Source of the DNA: Ostreococcus lucimarinus
Taxonomy: Eukaryota
Assembly (NCBI GenBank): GCA_000092065.1
Contig: CP000584.1
Direction: 5' to 3' (one strand)
Length of the DNA: 64,000 bases
Shown: positions 2,209 to 59,100 of the stretch, in pieces
How the letters are laid out: every line of letters starts with the position of its first letter
Position numbering within the stretch: position 1 is the first letter of the stretch
The notes under the pieces: generated by a model
What the model was told of the DNA's origin: nothing
Database searches by the model: none
The model's input: the letters and a program-made list of their open reading frames with translations, nothing else
Program-made: the position numbers and the translations under genes

Positions 2209-3793
2209 AAGGCGGACGCGATGGGCGGCGTGCGGGGCGATCGGGATTTTGACGTTTTTGACGACGCTCTTGGGGGCGAACGGAGAGCCGGAGTGCCAAG
2301 AACGAAGCGAAACGCGCGCGGTGGACGTAGAACTCGACACCGGGGCGTGGCAAACGATCGTCACGGGAGGGCTTGCGCTGTTCGGGGGGGACGTGGAGGC
2401 GAACGCGACGCTCGGGCCGTGGACGATTGGGGGGGCGAGCGCGGACGCCTACGGATGCGCGATCGGTAGCGTGGGAGACGATTTCACGGGTAAAGATGTC
2501 TTGGTCGTGAAGCGAGGGGAGTGTGAGTTCTACGAGAAGGCTAGGGTGGCGCAAGACGTCGGAGCAAAGGCGGTCTTTGTGGTGAGCGATGGGGAAGACT
2601 TCACCGCGATGACGTGCAACGAGGATCAGAAACTGGATGTCGTGACCGTTTTAGTGACGGGAACGACTGGACAGGCGATCCTCGATGCCACCACGGAAGT
2701 GGGCGCGACGATTACGATCGCACGCTCCGACGCACTGCCGAGACAGTTTGATTTCTTGGCCTCTGCGGCTCTCGTTGCGTTGGCCCTCGCTACCATCGCC
2801 CTCGGTGGAAGGTGGTCGTTGAAGGACAAACGAGCCGTCGTGAGCTCAAAACGTGATGATGATGACATCGACGATAGTAGTGACGGAGGAGAAGCCCATG
2901 AGGGCATCGAGATAAACGAGTACAGCGCGTTTTGGTTCGTCATCATGGCGTCAGCGGTCTTACTCATCTTGTTTTATTCCATGCAACATTGGGTATTCGT
3001 GGTGATGAGACTGGTGTTTTCTTTCGCTTCCTTCCAAGGATTGTACGTGATATGTTTCGAGGCGTTGATGTCGAGACGAAAGTCGACCTCGAGGGATTCA
3101 AGAGTGCTGTTGCCCATCGTCGGCTCAGTTCACCTTTTGGCCATTCCGGCGGCTGTATTCGCTGGCTTAATCGTTGCCACGTGGCTTATATTCCGGCAAG
3201 CCACGTGGGCTTGGATGTTGCAGGATATCATGGGTTTGTCATTCTTGGTAAACGTGTTGCGTTTGGTGCATCTGCCCAACTTCAAGGTGGCCACCATACT
3301 TTTATGTTGCGCGATGTTGTACGACATCTTCTGGGTCTACGTTCAGCCACATTTGTTCGGTAAGAAGAGCGTGATGGTCGCCGTTGCGCGCGGCGGAGAT
3401 GAAGGTGAAAGTTTACCGATGCTATTTTTATTCCCGAGAGCTTCAAGTCCAGGGGATTTCTCCATGCTGGGGTACGGCGACGTCATCCTTCCCGGTTTAC
3501 TCATCGTGCACAACTTGTTGTTTGACAACAGAAAGCGCAATTTTTCGGATACCAGGTACTATTACTTCTTCTGGAGTATGGTTGCATACGTTGTCGGGAT
3601 GTGCTTGACGTTCACGGCGCTTTATTTTGAGGTTGGAGGCCAAGGTGGACAACCAGCGTTGACGTATTTAGTTCCCACCGTCGTCGGGACGACGGGAATT
3701 TTAGCGTGGAAGCACGACGATTTATCAGACATGTGGTACGGTGTCGACGATGATTACTCGGCATTACCATCGGAGTCCCAATCTATATTGTAA
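2120..3793 (+). CDS. Signal peptide peptidase-like protein (SPPL2-type, PA domain, presenilin-family aspartyl protease)
   Basis: Within ORF 1805..3793; first ATG at 2120 (aa 106 of the track ORF). Signal peptide WAACGAIGILTFLTTLLGANG, a PA domain, multiple TM helices, presenilin-family catalytic motifs YDIFWVY and LGYGDVILPGL, and a QPALTYLVP (PAL) motif. Confidence 0.8.
2140..2210. repeat. (GACGCGACG)3 + (ACG)~13 coding microsatellite
   Basis: Direct reading of 2143-2207: gacgcgacg x3 followed by acg x13. It encodes poly-Thr(13) in the SPPL N-terminus and lies in the shared divergent cactin/SPPL 5' region. Confidence 0.85.
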
Positions 3794-3923
3794 AAAGTAA
3801 GATACACGTAGTTGCGTAGAAACAACCGCACCACTCCACGCGCTCGTGAACGCCTCTCGCGCAGAGAACCTGCATTGTGCCGCTCGTTCGTGCCGTAACC
3901 GGGATCTCGCGCGGTAATGCGTG

Positions 3924-4265
3924 ATGAATAGAGACAAAGCGCGACAAGGTCTTAGAGCACCGACTCTGGGCGGTGCGACGAAAGAAGATACCCCCATTGC
4001 GCGTCGCGTCGCGTTCCTCCGCGAAGCCGCCCAAGCGTACGTCGAAGACATTCCCGAATTGTCGGCGTGGTTGAGCATGTCAGCGACTACTTTAGCGCGA
4101 GAAAACGAGCTATCGCGAACGCAAATAAACGCATACGGGTCTTGTCCAGCGTGTGGCTTACCCAAAGACTCTGAAGAGATCAGTTGTCGACTGTGTGGTT
4201 CTCTGCTGAAGAAGAAACAACGCCGTGCGACCAAGGATAGTAGACGAGCGCACGGGAGTAGTTAA
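3924..4265 (+). CDS. Small zinc-ribbon protein, tentatively Rpr2/Rpp21-like (RNase P protein subunit family)
   Basis: ORF 3921..4265 (GTG then ATG at 3924). N-terminal RVAFLREAAQAYV resembles the Rpp21 RLNFLLQAA motif; C-terminal CPAC...CRLCGSLLKKK resembles the Rpp21 zinc ribbon (LCRGCSSLLVPG). It sits in the gap between the SPPL and galactokinase 3' ends. The family call is tentative. Confidence 0.35.
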   Translation: MNRDKARQGLRAPTLGGATKEDTPIARRVAFLREAAQAYVEDIPELSAWLSMSATTLARENELSRTQINAYGSCPACGLPKDSEEISCRLCGSLLKKKQRRATKDSRRAHGSS

Positions 4266-4349
4266 AGTACTTGTTTAGGGACATATGTATGAAAAGTAGA
4301 CGATGCATAGTATCACATATTTCATGTTCGGCACGTATCAAATACCGAT

Positions 4350-5816
4350 CTAAGCGAACGAAACGCCTTTCAAAATTGCCGCACCAGAGCTGGGCAGCGT
4401 TGCGAAGAGCGTCGTCGCCATATTGTCAGCAGAAATAAGGCCCGCAGCGATGCGAGAAGAGTAGAAAGACTCGTGCACCGCTTTCAGAACACTCTCTACC
4501 GCATCCTTGGCGACAATTGCTACGGCACAACCGCCCCAACCAGCACCAGTAAGACGCGCGCCCAGAGCACCCGCCGCTCTAAATGCATCCACGAGTTCAT
4601 CCAGCTCCGCGCAAGAGCACTCGTACAGGGCTCTACAAGATTCGTGGCTACCATTCATGTACACGCCCAGCTCCGTTGGGTCGACCTTCATCGCGCACGC
4701 CGCAGCGAACAAGTGCACACGACCGGCCTCGGAGTAGACGTGCAACGTCCGCGCCAGAAGCTTATATCCCTTCTCGTTGTGACTCAAGACCAACTTCGAC
4801 GCTGGTGAAGAGAAGACGTCCATGAATGCTTCTACTCCTATGAGTTCTTCAATCTCTCTTGCATCGTAGTATCCCTCGTGCAAATGTTCCTCGGCCGCAG
4901 CCTTAGCGGCAGACATGGAGCCGACAAAGTCTTCGATTTCCTTGAGCGTCTCTATTTTTGACGCTTCTTCCGCGTTCATACCTAGCTTTAAACCTAAAAT
5001 AATCGCCGCAAGACGGCACTCTACGACGCGCAAATTATAGCGCTCGTGTGCGGTCTCCGCTTTGTTGCTCACTGCGAGGCAGTTGCCTATGATGAACGCC
5101 GCTTCCTCCGGAAGGTTGACGTCGTTGGTGCTTATGGGATTGAAATCGACCAATTTTGCCACACCAGCTTCGCCCATGATGGAAATAGCTTGATCCATAC
5201 CCCCCGACTGCGTTCCTGAGTATCGTTCGCACTTGCACGTGAAGTCAGCAATTTCACCTTGAGTGAAATTCAATCCTAGCGCGTGCATCACCGCCACCGC
5301 CACGGCGCAGCACAACGCCGAGGACGAACTCAAACCGCTTCCAGTGGGTACCGTGCCGTCGACGATGATGTCCAACCCAACGGGGGCGGGTGATGCCTTA
5401 TCGCTCTCTTTCAAGAAATCGAACACCCCCTTGTAGCCGCACATGACGTAATTCGTCCAGTGCAAAGACGCCGCGTCCACGTCTTGTTCGGGCGAGCTCT
5501 CGAATGTCTTCGGCGTGTACTTTTCGTTCGTGTTCCCGACCGCGATCTTCCCCGAACTCGCATTCACGGAGATGGCGACGATAGTGTCGAGCCCGATCGC
5601 CATCGGCAGCACGGAGTACCCCTCGTAATCGATGTGTTCGCCGATTAAATTCACTCGTCCCGGCGACCTCGCGAACGCGTCCGGCTCGCGTCCGTACGCC
5701 TTCACGAACGCATCGCGCACCGTCGCGTACCGCGCGCGCGTGTGCGTCTCCAGCGACGCGGCGTCATATATCTCTTCTAACGAGCTCACCACTCGCACCT
5801 CATCATCCGTCCCCAT
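4350..5816 (-). CDS. Galactokinase-family GHMP sugar kinase
   Basis: Galactokinase signature PGRVNLIGEHIDYEGY near the N-terminus, a GHMP ATP-binding region GSGLSSSSALCCAVAVA, and a 488 aa length. ATG at 5816 confirmed (cat at 5814-5816). Confidence 0.8.
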   Translation of the reverse strand: MGTDDEVRVVSSLEEIYDAASLETHTRARYATVRDAFVKAYGREPDAFARSPGRVNLIGEHIDYEGYSVLPMAIGLDTIVAISVNASSGKIAVGNTNEKYTPKTFESSPEQDVDAASLHWTNYVMCGYKGVFDFLKESDKASPAPVGLDIIVDGTVPTGSGLSSSSALCCAVAVAVMHALGLNFTQGEIADFTCKCERYSGTQSGGMDQAISIMGEAGVAKLVDFNPISTNDVNLPEEAAFIIGNCLAVSNKAETAHERYNLRVVECRLAAIILGLKLGMNAEEASKIETLKEIEDFVGSMSAAKAAAEEHLHEGYYDAREIEELIGVEAFMDVFSSPASKLVLSHNEKGYKLLARTLHVYSEAGRVHLFAAACAMKVDPTELGVYMNGSHESCRALYECSCAELDELVDAFRAAGALGARLTGAGWGGCAVAIVAKDAVESVLKAVHESFYSSRIAAGLISADNMATTLFATLPSSGAAILKGVSFA

Positions 5817-16833: not shown

Positions 16834-18000
16834 ATGCCGCGCGAGTCGCTGCGTCACGCCATCCCCTCGTCCTACGACGAAGAGATGGAGCAACTCCGCG
16901 TCGCGCTCGAGATATCTGCGCGCGCGTCGACCTCACACGACGTTCACGCGTCGTCCTCGGCGCGAAATTCGCTACGACAATCCGCGGCACCACACGTAAC
17001 GACTTCACCTCGTTTCGTCAACGGGAGCGGCGCGTCGACGCGAACGGCGGGACGAACGGGACGAGTGCTCGTCGATGACGCGCGCGCGCGTCGTCCTGCG
17101 CGCGCGCGCGATGATTTCGCGGACGACGACGATGACGCGCGGGCGACGCTCGCGGAGCGGCTCGAGCGGCGGCACGGCGTCTCGGCGCGAGACGCGCAGC
17201 GCGTGGTGGACGTGCTCGACGGTGACTACGCGCGCGCGGAGGACGTGTGCTTGATCGTAAAAATGGTACCCACGAGTGTGGATCGAGCGATCGCGCATTT
17301 GAGGAACGTGGGATGGGACGTGGATTTGGCGTTGTCGAGGATGTTGGACGCGTCGAAGACGAGCCCGAACGCCGAGACTGAGCGGGAGGAATTGAAGCGG
17401 CGCGCGAGGTCGATGCGACGCCCGGGGGGTGATGGGAAGGCCGACGAAGCGAGGACGGTAAAGCAGAATTTGAACTATACTCCCGGTGCGGGCCATCGCG
17501 AGTCAGAGTCGGGATTTTCGTCGGCGTCGTTTCGCGCGTCTCCCGCCTCGCGAGCGCGCGACGAAGAAACGGAGCGGTATCATCGCGAGCGGTGGGAGAG
17601 CGAAATTTCCGATCGCGCGGCACAAGCGAACAAAGCGAAGTCAAAATGGGACTCATCTCAACCTACCGCGGCATCGACGCCTCGTACGGCGTCGGGATCG
17701 GAGCACGCTCGCGAGACTTTGCGATCCGAACCGCCAAAGCCTTCGCATTCGGCGCCGCGACCCTCTCGCGCGTCCGACCCCCCACTCGCCACCCTCGAGC
17801 GCGAAGGTTTGGTACAAGTTCTCACCGCGCTCGGCGTTGAACCGTCGTCGTCTTCTATCACTGCCGTGCGTTCGGCGTACAGAAAAGCTGCCCTTCGTTT
17901 CCATCCCGACCGTCTCTCCGCCGCCGGCGCGCTCGAGCGCTCCTACAAATCCGACGTCTGGAAGCTTCTCTCGTCCAAGATGGACGCCTACGCCCCCTAG
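16834..18000 (+). CDS. Ubiquitin-interacting-motif protein with C-terminal J-like (HPD) domain
   Basis: N-terminal UIM (YDEEMEQLRVALEISAR), a central UBA/CUE-like helical segment, an acidic/Ser-rich low-complexity middle, and a C-terminal J-domain-like helix II-III with YRKAALRFHPDR. ATG at 16834. Confidence 0.45.
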   Translation: MPRESLRHAIPSSYDEEMEQLRVALEISARASTSHDVHASSSARNSLRQSAAPHVTTSPRFVNGSGASTRTAGRTGRVLVDDARARRPARARDDFADDDDDARATLAERLERRHGVSARDAQRVVDVLDGDYARAEDVCLIVKMVPTSVDRAIAHLRNVGWDVDLALSRMLDASKTSPNAETEREELKRRARSMRRPGGDGKADEARTVKQNLNYTPGAGHRESESGFSSASFRASPASRARDEETERYHRERWESEISDRAAQANKAKSKWDSSQPTAASTPRTASGSEHARETLRSEPPKPSHSAPRPSRASDPPLATLEREGLVQVLTALGVEPSSSSITAVRSAYRKAALRFHPDRLSAAGALERSYKSDVWKLLSSKMDAYAP

Positions 18001-18358
18001 CGATGATGTTGATTCTAATAGTATCTTTAGCATCTTTAGTGTTCTCGTCTCAACTCCTCAGTGTTCTGGTCTCGAGCCTCCATTCACCGCTCGCCGAGGG
18101 CTTCGTTCGCGAAACCTCGCGCGCGCGGCTCTCTCCTCAACGGGCGGTTCCGCGGTTTCGCGCTCGCCTGACCTCGGATCTGCACTCGACGTCGAGCGCG
18201 TCGTCGGCGTTCGCGCGAACGACGCGCGTGCGACGAACGCACGACACGCGCGCGCGTCAAACGCACGCGTCCGCGCGTCGTACGTTGCCGTTTACGCGCG
18301 CGCGCGCGAGCGCGAACGCGCGATTCGATCGCAACGTTTGGTCGCGATCTGAACAAAG

Positions 18359-18376
18359 ATGTTGACGAAGTTCGAG
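18359..18376 (+). CDS. COPA: Coatomer subunit alpha (COPA), exon 1 of 4
   Basis: MLTKFE matches the universally conserved COPA N-terminus MLTKFE; it is followed by a GTACGA donor. Intron 1 is 18377..18461. Confidence 0.85.
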
Positions 18377-18651: not shown

Positions 18652-18783
18652 GTGCGTGATGATGGGGCGAGGCGAAGAGGGCGACGCGCGCGATCGACCC
18701 GAGACGCGATCGCAAACGCGAGGCGAGGAAAATGCGACGGGGGGAGAAATTGAGACTGACCGCGCGCTATTGCGCTGAAACAG

Positions 18784-20504
18784 GGGATGATTATAAGATC
18801 AAGGTTTGGAGTTACAAGCTCAGACGGTGTATGTTCACGCTTTTGGGTCACTTGGACTACATCAGAACGGTTGAGTTTCACCAAGAGTACCCGTGGATCG
18901 TCTCCGCTTCGGATGATCAGACGATTCGGATCTGGAACTGGCAGAGCAGAAGCTCGATTGCGGTTCTCACGGGACATAATCACTACGTTATGTGCGCGAG
19001 ATTCCATCACAAGGATGACTTGGTGGTTTCGGCGTCATTGGATCAGACGGTGAGAGTTTGGGACATTAGCGGTCTCCGGCGCAAGGCTGTGAGTCCGGCG
19101 GATGAGCTCCGCATGCCGCAAATGAACAACGATCTGTTTGGTGGAGGTGACACTGTGGTGAAGTACATCCTAGAAGGTCACGACCGCGGCGTCAATTGGG
19201 CGGCTTTCCACCCGACGTTGCCGCTGATTGTGTCCGGTGCGGACGATCGTCAAGTGAAGCTTTGGCGCATGAACGACACGAAGGCTTGGGAAGTTGACTC
19301 TCTTCGTGGACACGTCAACAACGTGAGTTGTGTCGCTTTCCATGCCAGGCAGGATGTGATTGTGTCGAACTCAGAGGACAAGTCGATCCGTGTGTGGGAC
19401 ATGTCAAAGCGAGCCGACGCGCAAACCTTCCGACGAGAGAATGATCGGTTCTGGATCTTGGCCGCGCATCCTGAAGTCAATTTGTTAGCCGCAGGCCATG
19501 ACAGTGGTATGATTGTTTTCAAGCTCGAACGTGAACGTCCGGCGTACACCAGCCACCAAGGTAGCTTGTTCTACGTGAAGGATCGCTACTTGCGCCGCTA
19601 TGACTTTCAGTCTCAGCGGGATAATCCGTTGGTGTCCATCCGACGCACCGTTGGAGGTCCCAACTCGAGCCCGAGATCCATGTCATACAACCCAGCGGAG
19701 AATGCGGTGCTCATTACGTACGATGCCGGTGGTGAAAACTACGAGCTTTTCATGTTACCAAAGGATAGCGGCCGAGGCGAAGTCAGTGGCGACTCACGTC
19801 GCGGTAACGGTATTGGCGCGGTCTTCGTGGCCAGAAACCGATTTGCGACACTGGATAAGCAATCGAATAACATCATCATCAAGAACTTGGACAACGAAAT
19901 GACCAAGAAGTGTGCCTGCCCTACCCCGGGCACTGACATGATCTTCTATGCTGGCACAGGATCGCTCTTGTGCCGCTCCGATGAGAAGATGGTGTTGTTT
20001 GATCTCCAACAGCGCGCCGCTATCGCCGAGCTTGCTGCACCACACATCAAGTACGTCGTCTGGGCGTCAGATATGAGCCGTGTTGCTCTGCTGAGTAAGC
20101 ACGCCATCGTTCTCGCGGATCGCAAGCTTGGTCACTCTGTCACGGTGCACGAAACCATTCGCGTAAAGTCGGGAGCCTGGGACGATCACGGTGTCTTCAT
20201 CTACACTACGCTCAACCACATCAAATACGCCTTACCAAATGGTGACTCGGGCATTATTCGCACGTTGGATAACCCCGTGTACCTCACCAAGGTGTTTGGC
20301 AATGTCATTTTCTGTTTGGATCGTGATGGACGTAACCGTCAGCTTCAGTTTGACCCGTCAGAGTACATGTTCAAGCTCGCGCTCAATGCGAAGAGGTTCG
20401 ATCAAGTGCTTTCGATGATCAAAAGTGGACAGCTCTGCGGCCAATCGATCATCGCGTACTTGCAGCAAAAGGGTTACCCGGAGATCGCGCTCCACTTCGT
20501 TCAG
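18784..20504 (+). CDS. COPA: Coatomer subunit alpha (COPA), exon 3 of 4
   Basis: [55 protein letters not shown]... is a near-identical alignment to COPA WD40 repeats. It ends ...ALHFVQ before a GTGAGT donor. Intron 3 is 20505..20723 (relatively AT-rich). Confidence 0.85.
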
Positions 20505-20723
20505 GTGAGTTTCTCGTGCAACTTTTTCGGCGCTTTCTCGACGACCTTTTGGCACACGATGATTATCTACAACCTTACGGATCCTTCCTTGGTGAATGCC
20601 GAGAGTCTATGAAGATTTCTTGTTCGCTATTTTTTTGTATGAGTGTTCCAGCGACACTGCATTTGCTGCTCTTTTTTCGCCGACGGCGGCTTGACTAACG
20701 TCTCTATTCTTTTCATAAAACAG

Positions 20724-22463
20724 GATGAACGCACTCGCTTTGAGTTGGCGTTGGAATGCGGTAACATCGAAGTCGCCCTCACTAGCGCTCAAGAGATCGA
20801 CGACAAAGACACATGGCACAAGCTTGGTGTTGCGGCGTTGAATCAAGGTAACCACCAAATCGTTGAGTTTGCGTACCAAAAGACGAAGAATTTTGAGCGT
20901 CTTTCATTCTTGTACCTCATCACCGGTAACCTCGAAAAGTTGAGTAAGATGTTGAAGATCTCGGAAATGCGCGCCGATGTCATGGGACAGTTCCACAACG
21001 CACTCTACTTGGGTGACGTAGCCGAGCGAGTCAAGGTGCTTGAGAATGTTGGCCACTACCCGCTCGCGTACTTAACCGCCAAGACACATGGATTGGAAGA
21101 CGATGCAGCGCGCATAGCAGAAACATTAAACGAGAACGGTGCCGCTATTCCAGACGTGAGTGGCTTAGGAAAGCTGCTTCAACCGCCCGCTCCCTTGTTT
21201 AGAGGGGATAACTGGCCGTTGTTGCCGGTGTCCAAGGGATTCTTCGAAGGTGTTCTATCTGGCGAGATCGCTGGCGACGAGTACGCTGAAGATGATGTCA
21301 TGGGCATGGGTGGTGTTGGTCTTGGATGGGGTGACGCTGACATTGATATCGGTGACGACGAGCGCGTCGATCCGCTCGCCAAGGCTGGTATTGCGCCCGA
21401 TGTTGAGTTCGACGACGTCGACAATGAAAACGATGGCTGGGGCATGGATGAATTAGAACTACCGGAAGAGTTGATGGGTGGTGCAGTGGATGACACTGGC
21501 GCTGAAACGTTTCATAGCGATGTCTTCATCGCACCAACCGCCGGCGTTCCGCCGTCGCGACGATGGACTGAGAAGAGTGCCGTTGCCGGCGAGCACGTGG
21601 CTGCGGGCGATTTCGATAGCGCCATGAAATTGCTTAGCCGTCAGTTAGGGATCGTCAATTTCGCTCCACTCAAGCAACATTTCGTGGATTTGGCGTATGC
21701 GTCGCATGTGACCCTCGAGGGCATGCCCGCAAGTCCCAAGATACCGATGCCGCTCGGCCGCGGCTGGTCTTCGCGCGCAACGGGTGTTTTGCCGCCTGCG
21801 ATGATCTGTTCTCCGGAAATTCTCCAGGAACGCCTCAAGTCCGCTTTCAAGTTAACTACTGAAGGCAAGTTTGTGGAAGCTTTGAAAGTGTTTGTCGGTA
21901 TCATTCACGCGATCACCTTGTTGAGCGTGGAGGATCCGAGCGAAGTTGAGGACGTGGAACAGCTCTTGAAGGTGGCTCGCGAATACGCGTGTGCGCTGAG
22001 GATTGAGATTGCTAGAAAGGAAGTCAAGGATGACGCGACTCGACAAGCTGAGCTCGCCGCGTATTTTACGCACTCTGAGATGCAGCCGATTCACCTGTCT
22101 CTTTCTCTGCGATCGGCAATGTCAATTTTCTTCAAGCTGAAGAACTATGTCACCGCCGCAACGTTCTGCCGTCGATTACTTGAACTCAACCCGCCTGTCA
22201 AGGTGGCTACGCAAGCGAAACAAGTGTTACAAGCGTGCGAACGAGCACCTAAGGATGAGGTCGAGGTCAACTACGATCCTCACAATCCGTTCGCCGTTTG
22301 CTCTGCTACCTTTGTTCCAATTTACAAGGGGACGAAGGACTGCGTGTGCCCTACGTGTGGTGCGCACTACGTCGTGGAAGAAGCAGGGAACGTTTGCGGT
22401 GTGTGTAACTTAGGCAAAATCGGAGCGGATGCGACGGGACTGGTGTGTTCTGCGGCGCGTTAG
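20724..22463 (+). CDS. COPA: Coatomer subunit alpha (COPA), exon 4 of 4
   Basis: DERTRFELALECGNIEVAL...LSFLYLITGNLEKL...NWPLLPVSKGFFEG... matches the COPA C-terminal half through to the stop. Total about 1222 aa, consistent with COPA. Confidence 0.85.
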   Translation, partial: DERTRFELALECGNIEVALTSAQEIDDKDTWHKLGVAALNQGNHQIVEFAYQKTKNFERLSFLYLITGNLEKLSKMLKISEMRADVMGQFHNALYLGDVAERVKVLENVGHYPLAYLTAKTHGLEDDAARIAETLNENGAAIPDVSGLGKLLQPPAPLFRGDNWPLLPVSKGFFEGVLSGEIAGDEYAEDDVMGMGGVGLGWGDADIDIGDDERVDPLAKAGIAPDVEFDDVDNENDGWGMDELELPEELMGGAVDDTGAETFHSDVFIAPTAGVPPSRRWTEKSAVAGEHVAAGDFDSAMKLLSRQLGIVNFAPLKQHFVDLAYASHVTLEGMPASPKIPMPLGRGWSSRATGVLPPAMICSPEILQERLKSAFKLTTEGKFVEALKVFVGIIHAITLLSVEDPSEVEDVEQLLKVAREYACALRIEIARKEVKDDATRQAELAAYFTHSEMQPIHLSLSLRSAMSIFFKLKNYVTAATFCRRLLELNPPVKVATQAKQVLQACERAPKDEVEVNYDPHNPFAVCSATFVPIYKGTKDCVCPTCGAHYVVEEAGNVCGVCNLGKIGADATGLVCSAAR

Positions 22464-22610
22464 GCCTTAGCTTTTGAATGACAAAGTCTGTGCTTAATTG
22501 ATACACTCGCGGATTGTTGAGGATACGCGCCGTCACTGCGCGCTCAACTCTCCGCCTAATTCTAGTTTGCATTTCGTTTCTACCAAAGAATATCGACGCT
22601 TTTGATAATA

Positions 22611-23339
22611 TCAAAGCGGAGAAGAATCCGAACTCATCGACACTAGCCCTTCGACGGAGGGAGTCGGCGTGATCCGACTGCGTAAGCGTTCTGAGCTTGG
22701 GTACAAGAAAATAAGAACGACCTGTACGATGGAGAGCACAGAACCGAAAAGATTCGGCGCGGCGATCCACCAGTCGTTCAACGCTATGCCATACGTGGTC
22801 CAGCACAGGCCATTGAGTCCGTTGCAAAACACCAGAGGAAAGTGCATGGACTTTGAATCCTTCGTCCTGACGACTTCCGCCATCGTCGACAGCGGCGCCG
22901 AGTAGTACACCACCAGAATCAAGTTTGCCAAGATCCCAGCCACCACAAGGCGCGCGCTCTCGCTCGAATTCTTCATCACACAACTCACTACCATCCCTAT
23001 GAAACTAACCAAGATGATTAATACCGCAACTATGCGTTCCATCGTTCCCCGTATCTTCTCGTCGAGCGCATACGCCACAAAAGAGTAATACGTCCCGCAA
23101 AAGTATCCAGTAAAGTTTGGAATATACACCCAATAGTTCCCACTGATACCACCGTAAATCATCCACGCCGCGCAATTCGCCGCCACGAACGGATACGGCA
23201 GCGCGTTCAGGTGTCCGAGCGAGCGCTTCGTCTTGCACCGCTCGATTTCCGGGAACGGGCTCAGAAACATGACCTGGGCCAACGCGCTCCCCAACGCCGG
23301 CGCGAACCAAAGCGTGAGGGCATCTCGCGTGTCGCCCAT
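22611..23339 (-). CDS. SWEET sugar transporter (MtN3/saliva family)
   Basis: Seven-TM protein with two MtN3 repeats (PLSTMAEVVRTKDSKSMHFPLVFCNGLNGLCWTTYG). The track start is GTG at 23360; first ATG at 23339 (MGDTRDALTLWFAPALG). Confidence 0.8.
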   Translation of the reverse strand: MGDTRDALTLWFAPALGSALAQVMFLSPFPEIERCKTKRSLGHLNALPYPFVAANCAAWMIYGGISGNYWVYIPNFTGYFCGTYYSFVAYALDEKIRGTMERIVAVLIILVSFIGMVVSCVMKNSSESARLVVAGILANLILVVYYSAPLSTMAEVVRTKDSKSMHFPLVFCNGLNGLCWTTYGIALNDWWIAAPNLFGSVLSIVQVVLIFLYPSSERLRSRITPTPSVEGLVSMSSDSSPL

Positions 23340-23508
23340 GACGCGCGACGTGTGACGCACGTACGCTTACGTCGCGCACCTCGTCCTCGTGACCGTGCGA
23401 ACGCGCTGATGCGCGGCAACGCGGCGCACTTTGACGTCCGACGCGTTTGTCCCGCTCGAGACACTTTTTTGCCCGCACGCTCGGGACACCGCGACGCGCG
23501 TGTCGGCG

Positions 23509-23748
23509 ATGCACCCGCCGCTGACGCTGGACAAGCACCCGATCTGCCGCGAAGCCGTCATCGCTCTCAAGCGCTGTCACGCCGAAAACGCCCTGGGCAA
23601 GTTCCTCGGGAAGTGCAACGAAGAAAAGTGGACGCTCGACGCGTGCCTGAAGGAGCAAAAGCTGTGGAAGAGTCGAAGAAACTTGAAGCTCGCGCGCGAG
23701 TCCAAGGCGCGATTGGCGAAAAAACTCGAGGAAGAGCGAGCGAAGTGA
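23509..23748 (+). CDS. CMC2: COX assembly mitochondrial protein 2 homolog (CMC2, twin Cx9C)
   Basis: 79 aa, the same length as human CMC2. MHPPLTLDKHPICREAVIALKRCHAENALGKFLGKCNEEKWTLDACLKEQ aligns with human [51 protein letters not shown]. Two Cx9C motifs present. ATG at 23509 (aa 27 of track ORF 23431..23748). Confidence 0.8.
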   Translation: MHPPLTLDKHPICREAVIALKRCHAENALGKFLGKCNEEKWTLDACLKEQKLWKSRRNLKLARESKARLAKKLEEERAK

Positions 23749-23759
23749 GACCTCGAGCG

Positions 23760-24332
23760 ATGACGAGGGTTCTCATCGGAGTGTCAGGATCCGTGGCGGC
23801 GATCAAGTTCGACGAGCTCGCGCGCGAGCGGTGGAGCGCGAGCGGCGAGTGTGAGGTTCGGTTCGTGTTCACAGATAACGCGTTGAAGTTCATCGATGCG
23901 GAAGATATCGCACGAGCGGAAGAAAATAACATAAAAACTTTCACCGATCACGACGAGTGGCGTGAATGGGGCGAAAAGGGCGATCCCGTGATGCATATCG
24001 AGTTGGTCAAGTGGGCTGACGTCTTCGTCTTGGCGCCACTCAGCGCAAACACCCTGGCTAAAATCGCCAACGGGTTGTGTGATAATCTCCTCACGTGTGT
24101 ATTTCGCGCGTGGGATTTTAAAGACCCCGCCAAACGCGTGTTCATAGCGCCCGCGATGAACACAAAGATGTGGGAGAGCCCGTTCACCGAGCGACATTTG
24201 CGCTCGGCGCGCGAGCTCGGCGTCGTCGTCGTTCCGCCGATCGAGAAGCACCTCGCGTGCGGTGACTTTGGCGTCGGCGCCATGGCGGAGGTCTCCACCA
24301 TCGCCGAAGTCGTGCGGTCGCCTCCGGCGTAA
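23760..24332 (+). CDS. Phosphopantothenoylcysteine decarboxylase (HAL3/PPCDC flavoprotein)
   Basis: 190 aa. Motifs LIGVSGSVAAIK, VFVLAPLSANTLAKIANGLCDNLLTCV and PAMNTKMW match PPCDC/HAL3. ATG at 23760, 11 nt after the CMC2 stop and in a different frame. The upstream 180 aa of track ORF 23211..24332 is Arg-rich noise. Confidence 0.85.
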   Translation: MTRVLIGVSGSVAAIKFDELARERWSASGECEVRFVFTDNALKFIDAEDIARAEENNIKTFTDHDEWREWGEKGDPVMHIELVKWADVFVLAPLSANTLAKIANGLCDNLLTCVFRAWDFKDPAKRVFIAPAMNTKMWESPFTERHLRSARELGVVVVPPIEKHLACGDFGVGAMAEVSTIAEVVRSPPA

Positions 24333-24494
24333 CCCGTCCTAGCTCATCATTGTTTCCCCGCGCGTCGTGTGTTGTGCAATAGAGATAGAAAAAAGCGAAA
24401 AAAACCCGACGGCTCGACGTCACCACCATAGCTCGTGCGCCTCGCGACGCCACACCGCGCTCGTCGACGATCGACGTCGCGCCGGACGCGCGCG

Positions 24495-26030
24495 ATGCAC
24501 AGAACATTCGTCAGGTCGGCCATGCACCGCCGCGTCGTCGCCGCCGCCGCCGCGCGCACGCGCACGACGTCATCCTCGTCCTCGTCCTCGCCGCTCGCCG
24601 CGAGCGTCGTCGCGCGACGTTGGACGCCCGGACGTCCCGCGCAGCGCGCGACGCTCGCCACGCGAGCGAGCGCAACGAGCGAAGCGCCCGCGTTGAATGC
24701 GTCGGGGGAGACGAACAAGGCGCTGGCGTGGAAGGCGGCGATCGATTTCAAGTTTGTGCGGGACAACGCCGAGTTGGTGCAAAAGAACGCGACGACGAGA
24801 AAGGTGGACGTGGATGTGCAGGAAATCATCGCGAAATACGAGGCGTTGAACGCGTTGAACTTTAAGTGCGATGAACTTCGCGAGCGTCGAAACGCGAACG
24901 CGAAGAGCATGAAGGGGAAGATGGATAAAGAGGTTCGGGACGGGTTGATTGCCGAGGGCAAGGCGATTAAGGACGAGCTCGCGGCGCTCGAAGGCGATCT
25001 CGCCGGACTCGAGAGCGAGTTACAAACCATGGCGCAGAGGTTGCCAAACTTGACACACCCGGATGTGCCGATCGGCAGCGAAGAAAATACGGTGACTCGG
25101 GCGACGGTGGGTGAGCAGCGCGCGTTTACGTTTCCAGTGCAAAATCACGTCGACGTCGGCGAAAAGCTTGGGATGTTCGACTTCGAGACTGGAAGCAAGG
25201 TGAGTGGTAGTCGTTTCGTCTACCTCACCGGTGTTGGAGCTATGCTTGAGTTAGCTCTGATCAACTGGGCGTTCGCCAAGGTTTTGAGCAAAGGTTTCAA
25301 GCCCATGATGGTGCCAGACATGGTGCGTAGCAGCGTGGTGGAGAAGTGCGGATTCCAGCCGCGGGCAGAGAACACGCAAGTGTATAGCATTGAAAACTCC
25401 GATCTCTGTATGGCGGGTACGGCTGAACTATTATTGGGTGGAGTATACATGGATGAAGTTGTGGAAGAATCGCAACTCCCTATCAAAATGGCGGCCTTCA
25501 GTCATTGTTTCCGCACTGAAGCCGGCGCCGCCGGCGCGCAGACTCGGGGCATGTATCGTTTGCATCAGTTTAGCAAGGTGGAGATGTTCGTCGTGGCCAC
25601 GCCTGAGCAATCTGACGCACTTCACGAGGAGCTCATCGGCATCGAGACTGAAATGTTTGCAGAGCTCGGCTTCCACTTCAAAGTTTTGGACATGCCCACG
25701 GAGGACTTAGGCGCACCGGCATATCGCAAATTCGACGTCGAAGCGTGGATGCCCGCGCTCGAACGGTACGGCGAAATTTCGAGTGCCTCGAACTGCACGG
25801 ATTATCAAGCGAGGCGGCTGAATATAAAGTACAGACCGAATGCCGTCGATGGCAAGAAGCAGCCGCTTATGCACTGCCACACTCTCAACGCGACGGCGTG
25901 CGCGATTCCTCGTATGATCGTCACCATCCTCGAAAATTTCCAGCAAGAAGATGGAAGCGTCGTCGTACCCGAGCCGTTGCGACCGTACCTCGGTGGCATG
26001 GATGTTTTGCGTCCGGAAGAGGGGAAATAG
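24495..26030 (+). CDS. Seryl-tRNA synthetase, organellar
   Basis: Class II aaRS motifs (GSRFVYLTGVGAMLELALINWA, FSHCFRTEAGAAGAQTRGMYRLHQFSKVEMF, GEISSASNCTDYQARRLNIKY) and an N-terminal Ser/Arg/Ala-rich transit peptide. The track start is GTG at 24435; first ATG at 24495. Confidence 0.85.
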   Translation: MHRTFVRSAMHRRVVAAAAARTRTTSSSSSSSPLAASVVARRWTPGRPAQRATLATRASATSEAPALNASGETNKALAWKAAIDFKFVRDNAELVQKNATTRKVDVDVQEIIAKYEALNALNFKCDELRERRNANAKSMKGKMDKEVRDGLIAEGKAIKDELAALEGDLAGLESELQTMAQRLPNLTHPDVPIGSEENTVTRATVGEQRAFTFPVQNHVDVGEKLGMFDFETGSKVSGSRFVYLTGVGAMLELALINWAFAKVLSKGFKPMMVPDMVRSSVVEKCGFQPRAENTQVYSIENSDLCMAGTAELLLGGVYMDEVVEESQLPIKMAAFSHCFRTEAGAAGAQTRGMYRLHQFSKVEMFVVATPEQSDALHEELIGIETEMFAELGFHFKVLDMPTEDLGAPAYRKFDVEAWMPALERYGEISSASNCTDYQARRLNIKYRPNAVDGKKQPLMHCHTLNATACAIPRMIVTILENFQQEDGSVVVPEPLRPYLGGMDVLRPEEGK

Positions 26031-35955: not shown

Positions 35956-36900
35956 ATGCCGAGCGACGTCGAAAACCACGGACACGCGATATGGACCCCG
36001 TTCGGGAACGCGGCGAAGACGACGGGACGGACGCACGGCGTCGAGGCGGTGCTGCGACAAAACGTGGTGAATTCAGAGTACTATCGAAAGCTGTGCCGGA
36101 GCGCGACGGGGACGGTGGACGGCGAAGGGATGGACTTCATGTCGCTCGTGGACGAGATATACGAACTGGTCGATCACGTCGAGCCGTGGATGTCGGGAAA
36201 CGCGCGAGGGGCGTCGACGGGGTTTTGCATACTGTTTCGGTTTTGCGAGAAGGAACTGAGCGATAAAGAGATTTGGCACCTGCTGAGGCACGGAGATTCG
36301 CCGTACATACGGGCGATCGGGTTTCTGTACGTGCGATACGTGAAGAATGGTCGGGAGCTGTTGAGGTGGTGCGAGGAATTTTTCGATGACGCGGAAAAGT
36401 TCTCGCCGTCGCCGGGCGGGAAGGAGGTGACGATGGGGACGTACGTGCGAGACTTGTTGCTCGAGCAACATTATTTCGAAACCATCTTTCCTAGGATTCC
36501 CGAGGTCGCCCGCCGAGAGATGGTGCAGCGAATAAAAGATTTAGGGTACTCCGACAGAGGATTAGGGTGCGGTGGTCAAGGGGGTACTCGAAGGAACGAC
36601 TCGAGCAACGGGCGACCGCAGTCGGTGAAGCACTCGCTTTCGATGCAAGTGGGACGAAAGGCGCACGGTGGTGGCGACGGCGGCGGCGATAGACCCCGGG
36701 ATGATCGCGATCGTCACCGCGATCGTCGCGATGATAGAGACGGTAGGCCCAGGGGACGAGATGATGCTAGATATAGAGACCGCTCGCGCTCGCGCGACCG
36801 CGACAGGCGACGCTCTCGAAGCCGTGAGAGAGACTCGTACAAACCGTATAGACGTGACGACAAGTACGACAAGTACGACAAGTATGATCGCCGGTACTAG
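35956..36900 (+). CDS. Pre-mRNA splicing factor PRP38 family with C-terminal RS/RD domain
   Basis: PRP38 domain (HGHAIW...LVDEIYELVDHVEPWMSGNARGASTGFCILFRFCEKELSDKEIWHLL...YIRAIGFLYVRYV) followed by RDRHRDRRDDRDGR...RSRSRDRDRRRSRSRER. ATG at 35956 (track ORF 34318..36900; upstream part is antisense to LeuRS). Confidence 0.8.
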   Translation: MPSDVENHGHAIWTPFGNAAKTTGRTHGVEAVLRQNVVNSEYYRKLCRSATGTVDGEGMDFMSLVDEIYELVDHVEPWMSGNARGASTGFCILFRFCEKELSDKEIWHLLRHGDSPYIRAIGFLYVRYVKNGRELLRWCEEFFDDAEKFSPSPGGKEVTMGTYVRDLLLEQHYFETIFPRIPEVARREMVQRIKDLGYSDRGLGCGGQGGTRRNDSSNGRPQSVKHSLSMQVGRKAHGGGDGGGDRPRDDRDRHRDRRDDRDGRPRGRDDARYRDRSRSRDRDRRRSRSRERDSYKPYRRDDKYDKYDKYDRRY

Positions 36901-36934
36901 AATGAATTGTGAATCAAATTGCATAAAACAGTTG

Positions 36935-38812
36935 TCAACTGAGCCAAGGATGTTGAAGCGCTTCGCTCGCACTCAAACGGGCCTCCGGGTCGACGACTAG
37001 TAACTTTTCCAAAAAATCAATGAAGACATCGTCCTTAGCGCCGAGTCTCGTTTTCAAACACGTACGCTTTGGTCGTAAAATACTCATAGTCCCGCTCATT
37101 TCCTCGATTTCGTGCAGGAATCCTTGCTTAGTAAAGTACTTGTGACTCTGCGTACCTCTGGCGAGAAGTTTGGTGTCGAAGGGCCCTCTGATGCTCACCA
37201 TGCGTGCCAGCAGCGAGGGCACGGAACTATTTCTAAACAACATACGTCCGCTATAAAGTTCGGCAAGAATGCATCCGAGCGACCAAACATCAATCTTTTG
37301 TGAATACTTGGCTCCGATGATGACTTCGGGCGCCCTGTATGCGCGCGACTGCGCGTAACTGGTCAGGGTATCCGTGGTGAAGCACGAGCTGCCAAAGTCG
37401 ATGAGCTTCACGCTACAATCGGCGTAAGACTTCATCAGAATATTTTCGGGCTTCAAGTCACAGTGAATCAGATCCAGGCTGTGCAAGAAAGTGAGTGATT
37501 CGAGGACTTGCTTCGCGATGCAACGCACGCGCGAGAGAGTGAAATACGGTGTCTCGGCGGTCTCCGCGTTGTACTTTTGGAATTCATACAGATTCGCTCG
37601 CAAAAGTTCGCTGACGATGAACAAATGCTCCTTGAAATAGAAAAAATCGAACATTCGCAGCAGTCCGTGCGTGTCGTTCGGATCCTTGGCGTTTATCAAT
37701 CGCAACAGCTTGATCTCGTCTAGTCCCTGGTCCACGTGGTCCTTGTTATTGCTCACGATCTTCAGGCACACGGGTGTGTTCGTCTGAAGATCGTGCGCTC
37801 GCACGGTTTTACTAAACGCCGCACGACCGATGCCTTCGATTATTTTGTACCTATTTGCCACCACATCGCCGTGTTTCACGATGAAATCTTTCGAGTCTTG
37901 GAAGCCAGTTTTTTTGCCTTGGTGAAACACCTTCAAGTGAAAAGCTTCAAACGCGTTGCTCGCCGCATCGCGCTCAGAATCGACCCAACCTTGTGGTATT
38001 GGAGTTTCTAGTCCATCATCTGCGTCTACCGCGGGAACGTCGCCAAACGTGAAACTTTCGCCGCGATCGAGCACTCGCGTCTTCTTCTCAGCGCTCGTCG
38101 TCTGCTCCGCGTTCGCCTTCATGTCTGGCGAAAACTGCACGTGTCCATCGACGCACTCGCCACCCGCTTCCTCCCCCCCACAGTCATCCACTACAAAAGT
38201 GTCCACCAAATGTCTCCTCACCTCGTGTCTGGGCACGTAATACCGATCGAATCCCTCATCCTCTTCATCGACGTATTCGCACGCCGTTTCCGCCTTTCTT
38301 CGCCAGTCTTCCAAGACCTCTTCGTACGACGACGCGTTCTCCAGCAAGTCGTACGGCAAGATCGCCGACACCGACCGCACGTGCGTGCGCACCTTCTCTT
38401 CTGCTTCCTCTTTCGGCACCATCGCCGCCATGGCGCCTCCGTTTACGCTCACGCTCTGCAGCCGCCGCAACAGCGACGGTTGCCAACTGGCACTGCTTTC
38501 ACCTTCGTCCTCGCTCTCATCCTCGCTCTCGTCCGCGTCACCCGCGAGACGCGCACTGACGCCCTTCGCCATCCTCTGCCCGCGTTCGTCGTCGTCGTCG
38601 GCTTCGTCGGCTTCGTCGTCGTCGTCGCCGCCGCCGCCGCCCATTCTCTCGTTCAACTCCTTCGCGAGCGCGCGCTCGCTTCCTCGCAGCTCGTGCCTGC
38701 GCAGAAACTCCAGCGCGCGTCGAAGCTCGTCCGAGTCGCTCTCTAGCGTCACCGCGCGCGTCATCGCGTCGCGTCTCGTCGCACCGCCGCGTCGTCGTCT
38801 GCGGCCGCTCAT
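36935..38812 (-). CDS. DYRK-family dual-specificity protein kinase (DYRKP/YAK-like)
   Basis: Kinase subdomains (IGRAAFSKTVRAHD, HCDLKPENIL, DFGSS, YAQSRAYRAPEV) and a DYRK-homology box upstream (DSKDFIVKHGDVVANRYKI). Acidic N-terminus. The track start is GTG at 38842; first ATG at 38812 (alternative 38764). Confidence 0.8.
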   Translation of the reverse strand: MSGRRRRRGGATRRDAMTRAVTLESDSDELRRALEFLRRHELRGSERALAKELNERMGGGGGDDDDEADEADDDDERGQRMAKGVSARLAGDADESEDESEDEGESSASWQPSLLRRLQSVSVNGGAMAAMVPKEEAEEKVRTHVRSVSAILPYDLLENASSYEEVLEDWRRKAETACEYVDEEDEGFDRYYVPRHEVRRHLVDTFVVDDCGGEEAGGECVDGHVQFSPDMKANAEQTTSAEKKTRVLDRGESFTFGDVPAVDADDGLETPIPQGWVDSERDAASNAFEAFHLKVFHQGKKTGFQDSKDFIVKHGDVVANRYKIIEGIGRAAFSKTVRAHDLQTNTPVCLKIVSNNKDHVDQGLDEIKLLRLINAKDPNDTHGLLRMFDFFYFKEHLFIVSELLRANLYEFQKYNAETAETPYFTLSRVRCIAKQVLESLTFLHSLDLIHCDLKPENILMKSYADCSVKLIDFGSSCFTTDTLTSYAQSRAYRAPEVIIGAKYSQKIDVWSLGCILAELYSGRMLFRNSSVPSLLARMVSIRGPFDTKLLARGTQSHKYFTKQGFLHEIEEMSGTMSILRPKRTCLKTRLGAKDDVFIDFLEKLLVVDPEARLSASEALQHPWLS

Positions 38813-57309: not shown

Positions 57310-58131
57310 CTACGCGCCGTTCGGACTCGCAGGCATGGCGAGTCGCGTCACCACGAGATCATCGCTGGTCGTCGATTCTTCCACCAAATACTCGATGAGC
57401 ATGATTGCGAAGAACGTCAGGCAAATTGCGATTCCGACGCCGACGCGCAGAAACTTTGACTGCGGTTGAACGCCGACGTTCGCACCCACCTCGGCGGCTT
57501 CCTCCGCCATGGATGCGAGCGCGGAATCAATCTGTAACAGAACCTCCTCGCGACGTTTCTTTCCAACCTCGCGTCGCTCGTCGTCACCGTTCCCCGCCGC
57601 CGCCCCTCCTCTTTTGGGCTGCGGAAACCGACGCTCCAACTCCGCGAGCGCGAGACGATTCCTCGTCTCGGCCTCGGCCTCGACCTCGGCCATCGCCCCG
57701 ACGCGTCGCGAAGACACTTCGACGACCCCCATCCCCGGTTGTTTCCCCAGTCTCCCCATCGTTCGCCGCTCGCGCCGATTTTCCTCCGCGGCCTCCGCCC
57801 ACGCGTCGAGTTCTCGCAGCGCCTCCCTCGCCTTCGTCTCCTTCGCGTCGCTCGCGCTCCCGAGCTGCAGATCCCACACCGCGCGTTCGCCCAATTCCAT
57901 CGCCCCCTGCGCGGCGTCCCGCACCGCGTCCAGCGCCTCGCGCGAGATTTTCGCCGCGCTCGCCCCCGCGAGCGCTCGGCTCGAGCGTTCGACCGCGTCG
58001 AGCGCGCTCGTGAGCTCATCCACGCTCGACGCCCTCGCGCGCACCGCCTCGCGAAGCGCCGCGCATCGCTCGTACACCTCGCTCACCGCGTCGCCGAACG
58101 GCGACGGCGGCGCGCGCGCGGGCGTCATCGT
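57310..58131 (-). CDS. Coiled-coil protein with a near-C-terminal transmembrane segment (SNARE-like/tail-anchored candidate)
   Basis: ORF 57310..58152; first ATG at about 58131 (MTPARAPP...). Long Ala/Glu/Arg-rich helices, then EVLLQIDSALASMAEEAAEVGANVG, then a TM helix FLRVGVGIAICLTFFAIMLIEYLV, then about 30 aa. No confident family match. Confidence 0.4.
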   Translation of the reverse strand, partial: TMTPARAPPSPFGDAVSEVYERCAALREAVRARASSVDELTSALDAVERSSRALAGASAAKISREALDAVRDAAQGAMELGERAVWDLQLGSASDAKETKAREALRELDAWAEAAEENRRERRTMGRLGKQPGMGVVEVSSRRVGAMAEVEAEAETRNRLALAELERRFPQPKRGGAAAGNGDDERREVGKKRREEVLLQIDSALASMAEEAAEVGANVGVQPQSKFLRVGVGIAICLTFFAIMLIEYLVEESTTSDDLVVTRLAMPASPNGA

Positions 58132-58382
58132 GTGGCGCGCCCGCGGTCGCACTCGAAGACGCGACGCCGAGATGTCGACGAAAAAGGTGCGCGAGCGCGC
58201 GCGACGCGCACCGCGGTCGACGCGTCGCGACGCGCGCGCGCGCGGCGACGCGGCGACGCGCGCGCGATCGATGACGCGCGATTGATTACGCCGGCCCGTT
58301 TGCGATTCGATTTGGTGTTGACGGATTGAATTCGAATTTGAACGACGACCGGCGCGTGACTGACGATCGTCGACGCGTGTCG

Positions 58383-58432
58383 ATGCGCGCGCAGCGTACT
58401 CTGCTCAAGGTGATCATCCTTGGGGACTCGGG
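58383..58432 (+). CDS. RAB7: Rab7 small GTPase, exon 1
   Basis: ATG at about 58383 encodes MRAQRTLLKVIILGDSG (P-loop start) and ends in phase 2 before a GTGAGT donor. The coordinates come from direct reading, so the uncertainty is 1-2 nt. Confidence 0.7.
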
Positions 58433-58526
58433 GTGAGTAACGCGCGCACGGCGAGGCGAAGGCGCTCGAACGAATGAACGCTCGCTCGGGACGCGACTGA
58501 CGCGACGACGATCGTCCGCGATGTAG

Positions 58527-59100
58527 GGTTGGGAAGACGTCGTTGATGGCGCAATACGTAAATAATAAGTTCTCCAAGCAGTACAAGGCGACGATCGGGG
58601 CGGATTTCATGACGAAGGAAATCGTCATCGACGACACGGTGGTGACGTTGCAAATTTGGGATACGGCTGGACAGGAGCGATTTCAGTCGCTCGGCGTGTC
58701 GTTTTATCGCGGTGCGGATTGCGTGATGTGCGTGTACGACGTCAACTCGGCGAAATCGTTCGAGTCGCTCGAGAACTGGCGAAACGAGTTTCTCGTGCAG
58801 GCGTCGCCGAGCGACCCAGAGAAATTTCCCGTCGTCGTCGTGGGGAATAAAATCGACGTAGAGGACGGCAAGGACAGCAAGAGGGTGATCAGCGAGAAGA
58901 AGGCAAAATCGTGGTGCACGTCAAAGGGTGGTTTGATGCACTTCGAGTGCAGCGCGAAGGAAGATATCAACGTCGACGCCGCTTTTGAAGCCGTCGCGAG
59001 GTTCGCCGTGCAAAACGAAGACGCCGAGGAGGACGTGTACTTGCCGGACACCGTTAGCATCGACACGCGCGGCGCCGCACCCTCCAGCGGGTGCTGCTGA
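58527..59100 (+). CDS. RAB7: Rab7 small GTPase, exon 2
   Basis: After a TAG| acceptor: (G)[70 protein letters not shown]...[13 protein letters not shown]...[15 protein letters not shown]...SGCC matches Rab7 including the C-terminal CC prenylation motif. The spliced product is about 207 aa. Confidence 0.9.

Follow-up and report, generated by a model that had tools for sequence, protein, structure and literature searches.

We analysed a stretch of 64,000 nucleotides (nt) of contig CP000584.1 from the Ostreococcus lucimarinus assembly GCA_000092065.1 (hereafter called the window), in which two open reading frames (ORFs) on the plus strand, one for a CMC2-like protein and one for phosphopantothenoylcysteine decarboxylase (PPCDC, also known as HAL3 or CoaC), follow each other almost without a gap. 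ORF1 (23509-23748; ATG at 23509, TGA stop at 23746-23748) codes for 79 amino acids (aa), ORF2 (23760-24332; ATG at 23760, TAA stop at 24330-24332) codes for 190 aa, and the spacer between them, GACCTCGAGCG (23749-23759, plus strand), comprises 11 nt and contains no ATG. The two frames differ, (23760-23509) mod 3 being 2, and the first ORF is the shorter one (240 vs 573 nt), as in bicistrons that are translated by leaky scanning. A first-pass annotation had read this arrangement as a candidate bicistronic mRNA of the type known from green algae. Our analysis supports this reading strongly, albeit indirectly, i.e. by a documented pair in another alga, by conserved linkage, by a zone free of ATGs and by moss contigs. 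Thus, CMC2 and PPCDC very probably share one transcript in O. lucimarinus, and we assign a probability of roughly 0.7 to the full statement that both lie on one mRNA on which PPCDC is reached mainly by leaky scanning past the AUG of ORF1.

Two conserved proteins encoded 11 nt apart

ORF1 matches the Pfam family Cmc1 (PF08583; 2.9e-17) over positions 1-69 of the 70 positions of the profile, and its translation contains both motifs of a twin-Cx9C protein, C13-x9-C23 and C36-x9-C46, the four Cys residues being invariant across the alignment of relatives. Human CMC2 also has a length of 79 aa. The assignment of ORF1 to CMC2 rather than to CMC1 follows source names only. ORF2 matches the Pfam family Flavoprotein (PF02441; 3.9e-32), can be aligned end to end with HAL3a/PPCDC from Arabidopsis (PDB 1e20; E = 3e-62) and with human PPCDC (1qzu; 7e-48), residues 3-186 corresponding to 21-194. 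The alignment comprises the His of 'HIEL', which is catalytic according to the AtHAL3a literature, as well as 'APAMNTKMW' (PxMNxxMW) and 'LACGD' (ACGD), the latter with the Cys of the clamp. Coordinates, Pfam and structure matches, motifs and the frame offset of 2 thus all agree with the initial description of a complete twin-Cx9C CMC2 homolog that ends at 23748 and a complete HAL3/PPCDC ORF that starts at 23760 in another frame.

Compared with their relatives both ORFs are under purifying selection, the ratio of nonsynonymous to synonymous divergence (dN/dS) being mostly 0.1-0.3, with 0.09-0.29 for ORF1, and both are real genes. In O. lucimarinus CCE9901 they are already annotated, as two separate genes, and exact-sequence matches identify ORF1 as XP_001417204.1 and ORF2 as XP_001417205.1; the corresponding UniRef-type entries are A4RVT2 ('COX assembly mitochondrial protein') and A4RVT3 (phosphopantothenoylcysteine decarboxylase). 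No functional link between CMC2 and PPCDC is evident, and most algal bicistrons described by Duenas et al. (PNAS 2025; PMC11291117 / PMC11892635) likewise combine partners without such a link.

The gap between tandem same-strand genes of the window has a median of about 130 nt (n = 23, based on a crude gene map), which places the 11 nt at the extreme low end, and the gaps that flank the locus amount to 169 and 162 nt. The spacer is too small to accommodate a 3' end plus a promoter; with regard to the promoter the first-pass annotation had argued likewise.

Linkage of CMC2 and PPCDC in Mamiellophyceae

A metagenome scan with a CMC2 protein alignment as query yielded 79 loci (numbered with the prefix L), among them loci with an Ostreococcus-like (GC 0.54-0.57), a Micromonas-like (0.59-0.70) or a Bathycoccus-like (0.48-0.50) composition. 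In each of these classes PPCDC is located directly behind CMC2 and on the same strand at every locus that is sufficiently long. One of the linked locus types is represented by Micromonas pusilla CCMP1545 (XP_003058003.1), and contigs with close relatives of CMC2 or PPCDC from several Ostreococcus-like species also carry Cmc1 followed by Flavoprotein. More distant CMC2 homologs (L105-L107 and L109) have no PPCDC nearby, so that the scan was not predisposed to find linkage. Between the main lineages synonymous sites are saturated (synonymous divergence, dS, > 1). Moreover, the gene for seryl-tRNA synthetase (SerRS) lies downstream of the pair on the plus strand in Ostreococcus and upstream on the minus strand in Micromonas-like loci, while CMC2 and PPCDC stay adjacent and colinear, and thus the pair has outlived a local rearrangement.

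The junction of the two ORFs is variable. The inter-ORF distance is -20 nt in L082, -4 nt in L042, -1 nt in L049 and L058, 0 nt in L026 and 5 nt in L084/L086 and reaches up to 134 nt, with further spacers of 11, 15, 22, 24, 38, 40, 43, 58, 80 and 82 nt and with 125-134 nt in Bathycoccus-like loci. Stop and start codons form an ATGA overlap in L042, which is 97% identical to the window, share a nucleotide in the TGATG of L049 and L058, and directly adjoin in the TAAATG of L026. As, in addition, the frame offsets 0, 1 and 2 are all found among the relatives, a fusion protein, programmed frameshifting, readthrough and a fixed RNA element in the spacer are excluded. An internal ribosome entry site or another structured RNA was also rejected as a candidate, given that the spacer has just 11 nt and is not conserved and that the search of positions 22500-25000 against the Rfam families gave zero matches.

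Some loci show peculiarities of their own. Between close Micromonas-like relatives (L069/L077/L098 and L084/L086) CMC2 shows a dS several times below that of the adjoining PPCDC (0.04-0.07 vs 0.28-0.38, and 0.29 vs 0.81), and the PPCDC protein evolves much faster than CMC2. The low dS of CMC2 could reflect an extra constraint on ORF1 at the nucleotide level, the underlying counts being small. In the GC-rich, Micromonas-like L068 the PPCDC ORF (3043-4437) has 465 aa owing to a C-terminal extension, in which Gly/Arg-rich repeats occur together with two motifs resembling C2H2 zinc fingers, FQCGECGRSFDSAKGLKRHAHVH. Finally, the Ostreococcus-like L025 (Logan ERR14822400) carries a TAA (799-801) at the position of a Leu codon of its relatives, which shortens CMC2 to 58 aa, and the former CMC2 frame behind this TAA is still open to the usual stop. 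CMC2 has its full 78 aa in L067 (3001-3237), which is 98% identical to L025. The two contigs might differ by a polymorphism or by a recent truncation, or the TAA could result from a sequencing error.

A conserved zone without ATG

In O. lucimarinus the ATG of ORF1 and the ATG of ORF2 are 251 nt apart, and this distance, including the whole of ORF1, contains no other ATG in any frame, with about 2.6-4.4 expected, i.e. the PPCDC ATG is the first any-frame ATG after the start of ORF1. The Mamiellophyceae-like loci follow the same rule: the first any-frame ATG past the CMC2 ATG is the start in the PPCDC frame, 242-425 nt further on, and the ATG-free zone holds in 13 of the 14 diverged lineages, in which it measures 242-422 nt. 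In the lone exception (L025/L067) an internal ATG lies in the open PPCDC frame and would merely lengthen PPCDC. L049-L058 deviate only seemingly, since stop and start overlap there and the ATG, which is in frame, falls within the tblastn hit by one or two codons.

For the span from ORF1 to ORF2 the expected number of ATGs is 1.2-6.4, depending on the lineage, resulting in a Poisson probability of 0.002-0.30 per lineage that none occurs. Synonymous codon resampling of each CMC2 gave a probability of 0.001-0.37 per lineage for the lack of out-of-frame ATGs, and an internal Met is absent from all Mamiellophyceae CMC2 proteins. ORF2 of the same loci, which served as internal control, contains 6-15 internal ATGs, and the median distance from its own ATG to the next one is 81 nt. 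As dS exceeds 1 between the lineages, the absence of ATGs has been upheld independently. Multiplied naively, the per-lineage probabilities give a vanishingly small value, which overstates the independence of close relatives; even so, about a dozen lineages are separated by dS > 1. The ATG-free zone is the very signature that Duenas et al. linked experimentally to leaky scanning.

The start codons of the two ORFs differ in their surroundings when the relatives are taken together. Among 21 loci position -3 of ORF1 is G in ten, T in six and C in five cases and never A, and, since ORF1 always opens with MH, position +4 is always C. A pyrimidine is thus found at -3 of ORF1 in 11 of the 21 loci, whereas ORF2 has a purine at this position in 17 of them.

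Evidence for a two-ORF mRNA in moss

Two short, intron-free contigs of the scan (L095 and L096) carry CMC2 together with a PPCDC that is 80-83% identical to the one from the moss Physcomitrium patens. In the P. patens genome (CM009319.2) CMC2 is composed of three coding exons, in the last of which PPCDC (239 aa) starts, 78 nt past the CMC2 stop. Both CMC2 introns are spliced out in nine or more independent P. patens RNA-seq assemblies (1.5-1.7 kb), which run through PPCDC into the 3' untranslated region (UTR). These contigs are strong evidence for a two-ORF mRNA, short of final proof.

P. patens possesses a PPCDC paralog (L112, CM009328.2; mRNAs L113-L121), which is expressed with a spliced leader of 460-580 nt. 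In its exon layout this leader corresponds to CMC2, of which it is a decayed copy, as can be seen from 'MHRRL...' in place of 'MHPPL...' and from a 28-residue relic of exon 2. Thus, transcription of PPCDC from the CMC2 promoter continued after the death of ORF1, and the paralog is a bicistron minus its first cistron that has kept its transcript architecture. Eight upstream ATGs are present in this leader.

On the algal side, no poly(A) or poly(T) ends were found among the short metagenome contigs. L032 (Logan ERR9769283; 981 nt), which stems from a strain 98% identical to the window and may be of RNA or DNA origin, corresponds to about 23363-24343 of the window, i.e. it starts 146 nt 5' of the CMC2 ATG and stops 11 nt past the PPCDC stop, without poly(A). 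Another contig, L132 (1426 nt), ends within PPCDC.

Proposed expression of the locus

Based on these findings we propose that one capped, polyadenylated nuclear mRNA carries CMC2 and then PPCDC. Transcription would proceed from a promoter region common with the upstream neighbour, a divergent gene for a SWEET transporter on the minus strand (ATG at 23339; identified from the ORF map and Pfam). The intergenic region between the two genes (23340-23508; plus-strand coordinates) has 169 nt, which bound the 5' leader of ORF1, and may thus comprise the putative shared promoter and a short 5' leader. Its sole plus-strand ATG (23409-23411), 100 nt 5' of the ORF1 ATG and in the PPCDC frame, is probably a chance occurrence, either upstream of the real leader or ignored by it. 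The mRNA would end within the 162 nt after ORF2 (24333-24494, plus strand), i.e. before the downstream neighbour, the SerRS gene on the plus strand with its ATG at 24495. To judge from the nucleotide sequence only, this region would provide the bicistronic mRNA with its 3' UTR and poly(A) region; an A-rich tract is located at about 24378-24404, between the ORF2 stop and the SerRS gene. Enough of the scanning 40S subunits would initiate at the first AUG (23509) for CMC2 to be made. Another part of them would pass this codon and, as the following 251 nt hold no further AUG in any frame, initiate at the PPCDC AUG (23760).

Several observations weigh against this proposal. In O. lucimarinus itself we infer both the single mRNA and leaky scanning to ORF2. 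Taken by itself, this species has an ATG-free stretch that is no more than mildly unusual, as 3.8% of the 248-nt coding windows in the 64-kb window lack an ATG (coding density 0.015 ATG/nt) and in 3 of the 29 genes of the window the ATG that follows the start codon is 251 nt or more away. The start contexts of O. lucimarinus are nearly identical, gcgATGc for ORF1 and gcgATGa for ORF2, neither of them having a G at +4, so a contrast between a weak ORF1 start and a strong ORF2 start emerges only across the relatives and is not evident in O. lucimarinus; the rough start consensus of the window (29 ORFs; purine at -3 in 19, G at +4 in 13) does not separate the two starts either. The moss contigs are short-read assemblies, in which overlapping transcripts may be merged in principle. 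Moreover, the moss ORF1 holds three internal ATGs, i.e. leaky scanning is not the whole story in every lineage and the mechanism of translation may be a different one in moss. Finally, P0227 (MMETSP Transcript_3555), from an Ostreococcus of the L061 type, contains a 143-aa 'complete' ORF that consists of CMC2 and 63 in-frame upstream codons. Judging from this ORF, a part of the assembled transcripts of a sister species may reach at least 189 nt 5' of the CMC2 AUG, which would place upstream AUGs in their leader. P0227 may have arisen by the merging of divergent transcripts in an unstranded library or may represent a long leader.

The short or overlapping junctions of some relatives, TGATG, TAAATG and ATGA, also suit the main rival on mechanism, in which the mRNA is bicistronic as well and PPCDC is translated mainly by termination-reinitiation after the CMC2 stop. 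The 11 nt in O. lucimarinus and the 5 nt in L084/L086 fit this mechanism too, and so does the moss ORF1, which has internal ATGs and nevertheless resides on a two-ORF mRNA. Reinitiation does not require an ORF1 without ATGs, yet their absence is the most conserved feature of the locus, and the spacers of 80-134 nt in Micromonas- and Bathycoccus-like loci do not favour it. In addition, a first ORF of about 80-95 codons is long for efficient reinitiation in eukaryotes. When bicistrons were mutagenized in Auxenochlorella, expression of ORF2 depended inversely on the strength of initiation at ORF1: a weaker ORF1 context resulted in more ORF2 product and an added upstream ATG abolished it (PMC11892635). 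We regard reinitiation as the predominant route to PPCDC as unlikely.

We consider it very unlikely that the two genes give rise to separate, overlapping mRNAs, with a PPCDC promoter and transcription start site inside CMC2 and with the 3' end of the CMC2 mRNA within PPCDC or beyond it; in this case the tight spacing would merely result from compaction. Ostreococcus is indeed extremely gene-dense, other tandem ORF pairs of the window have tiny gaps as well, and the genome annotation lists two genes. An internal start site, however, would demand avoidance of ATGs only 3' of this site, but in every lineage it is precisely the ORF1 AUG that marks the beginning of the zone. Linkage also extends to genomes that are not compact, e.g. 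to Trebouxiophyceae, where long reads exist, and to the intron-bearing moss, where PPCDC lies in the last CMC2 exon, and the pair has also survived a local rearrangement.

Frameshifting, readthrough or a cryptic intron might in principle join CMC2 and PPCDC into one protein, or PPCDC might be extended by a start at the ATG at 23409, but both possibilities are hardly worth considering. Although the PPCDC frame is open from 23211 and the ORFs of L026 are in the same frame and separated by TAA alone, frame and spacing vary among the relatives (offsets 0, 1 and 2; -20 to +134 nt), both proteins are full-length, stand-alone homologs of proteins that are separate elsewhere, and the extension from 23409 is contradicted by L042, in which this ATG is missing and a stop interrupts the frame, and by the closed frame of other species. 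The open PPCDC frame (23211-24332; 373 codons) passes through the whole CMC2 ORF, which is in another frame, and is probably a chance feature of GC-rich DNA.

Relation to known bicistronic loci

The pairing of CMC2 with PPCDC had been put forward as a concrete example of a green-algal bicistron. It is not a new one, and the first-pass annotation has to be corrected in this respect, since publications on Trebouxiophyceae already list CMC2-PPCDC, which is thus known as a bicistronic pair from another class of green algae. Dataset S02 of Duenas et al. contains UTEX250_A10.26400/26395, a manually curated bicistronic locus of Auxenochlorella protothecoides designated 'CMC2/COAC1', which is colinear in Prototheca cutis, Chlorella vulgaris, Nannochloris and Coccomyxa; for Chlorella sorokiniana the evidence is marked 'PACBIO' and the Chlamydomonas column is empty (PMC11892635). 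According to Dataset S01 the A. protothecoides locus has a 5' UTR of 37 nt, an ORF1 of 276 nt, an inter-ORF distance of 2 nt and zero start codons in UTR, ORF1 and spacer (PMC11892635). The O. lucimarinus locus is the Mamiellophyceae ortholog of this 'CMC2/COAC1': the same two proteins are encoded in the same order (Cmc1-like, then PPCDC), the inter-ORF distance is tiny (2 vs 11 nt), ORF1 has about 80-90 codons and no ATG precedes ORF2. The two loci differ in the algal class and in the kind of evidence, since the Trebouxiophyceae locus is defined by long reads and manual curation and the Mamiellophyceae locus is known here from its sequence.

The published search for conservation of the A. protothecoides locus covered Trebouxiophyceae plus Chlamydomonas only and, as far as the tables covered here show, O. 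lucimarinus was queried in published colinearity searches by Chlamydomonas only. The O. lucimarinus CMC2-PPCDC locus is not among the published bicistrons in the tables covered here, to which Dataset S4 of Gallaher et al. (PNAS 2021) does not belong. Beyond the supplementary tables of Duenas et al., no report of a bicistronic mRNA or an upstream ORF involving CMC2 or PPCDC was found for plants or mosses among the papers searched. The CMC2-PPCDC pair throughout Mamiellophyceae, the spliced two-ORF mRNA in moss and the unusually clean comparative signature appear to be new.

Other systems share some of these features. In the green-algal loci of Gallaher et al., e.g. TOM22/SDHAF3, the first ORF is likewise short, codes in many cases for a small mitochondrial protein and has a longer conserved ORF close behind it, the partner proteins being functionally unrelated and the loci conserved across chlorophytes. 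They differ in that they were defined by Iso-Seq in Chlamydomonas and Chromochloris, with O. lucimarinus as mere target of colinearity searches, for which the tables covered here list few loci in this species. In CDC26-TTM3 (Lorenzo-Orts et al. 2019, as cited in PMC11892635), which is conserved between green algae and land plants, a small upstream ORF similarly shares its mRNA with the ORF of a metabolic enzyme. It involves other proteins, and its conservation in land plants has already been published. The dicistronic stoned and Snapin mRNAs of Drosophila, as cited by Duenas et al., resemble the locus in mechanism only, i.e. in an upstream ORF poor in internal AUGs, a non-consensus start and leaky scanning, and are animal genes for unrelated proteins.

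With these data the smallest free-living eukaryotes would join the users of a bicistronic nuclear mRNA for CMC2 and PPCDC. The pair is older than the split between prasinophytes and core chlorophytes and probably also older than that between chlorophytes and streptophytes, the two-ORF mRNA in moss moving the origin of the arrangement toward the base of the green lineage. In Arabidopsis the two genes appear to be separate. We consider it slightly better than an even bet that the pair is an ancestral bicistronic unit of all Viridiplantae, which has been kept for about a billion years in prasinophytes, trebouxiophytes and mosses. If so, it would be the second bicistron that extends from land plants to algae, beside CDC26-TTM3, it would imply a selected translational coupling of a mitochondrial cytochrome oxidase assembly factor with coenzyme A synthesis, and the Mamiellophyceae loci, with spacers from -20 to +134 nt that are always free of ATG, would constitute a natural mutagenesis series. 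The Mamiellophyceae lineages offer a clean comparative test of leaky scanning, as spacer, frame and overlap drift while the absence of ATGs is kept. In Ostreococcus tauri, which is amenable to homologous recombination, the model can be put to a direct test. For annotation, a word of caution may be appropriate: the two gene models in Ostreococcus and Micromonas probably belong to one promoter and one mRNA.

Other tight ORF pairs in the window

Two further same-strand pairs of the window, both on the minus strand, are closely spaced. At 36562-38812 an ORF for a protein kinase is followed after 10 nt by a 120-aa ORF without a Pfam domain, and at 57310-58628 two ORFs, neither with a Pfam domain, overlap by 4 nt (ATGA). 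These pairs could be further bicistron candidates or could contain spurious ORFs. On the plus strand, the ORFs that start at 16834 and 18003 (16834-18365) are separated by 2 nt, and a DnaJ domain is cut at their junction, the pair probably being one DnaJ gene split by an intron or a frameshift. The gene for coatomer alpha (COPA; 18732-22463, plus strand) also consists of two long ORFs, 18732-20612 for the WD40 part and 20643/20949-22463 for the C-terminal part, which suggests an intron or a change of frame between them.

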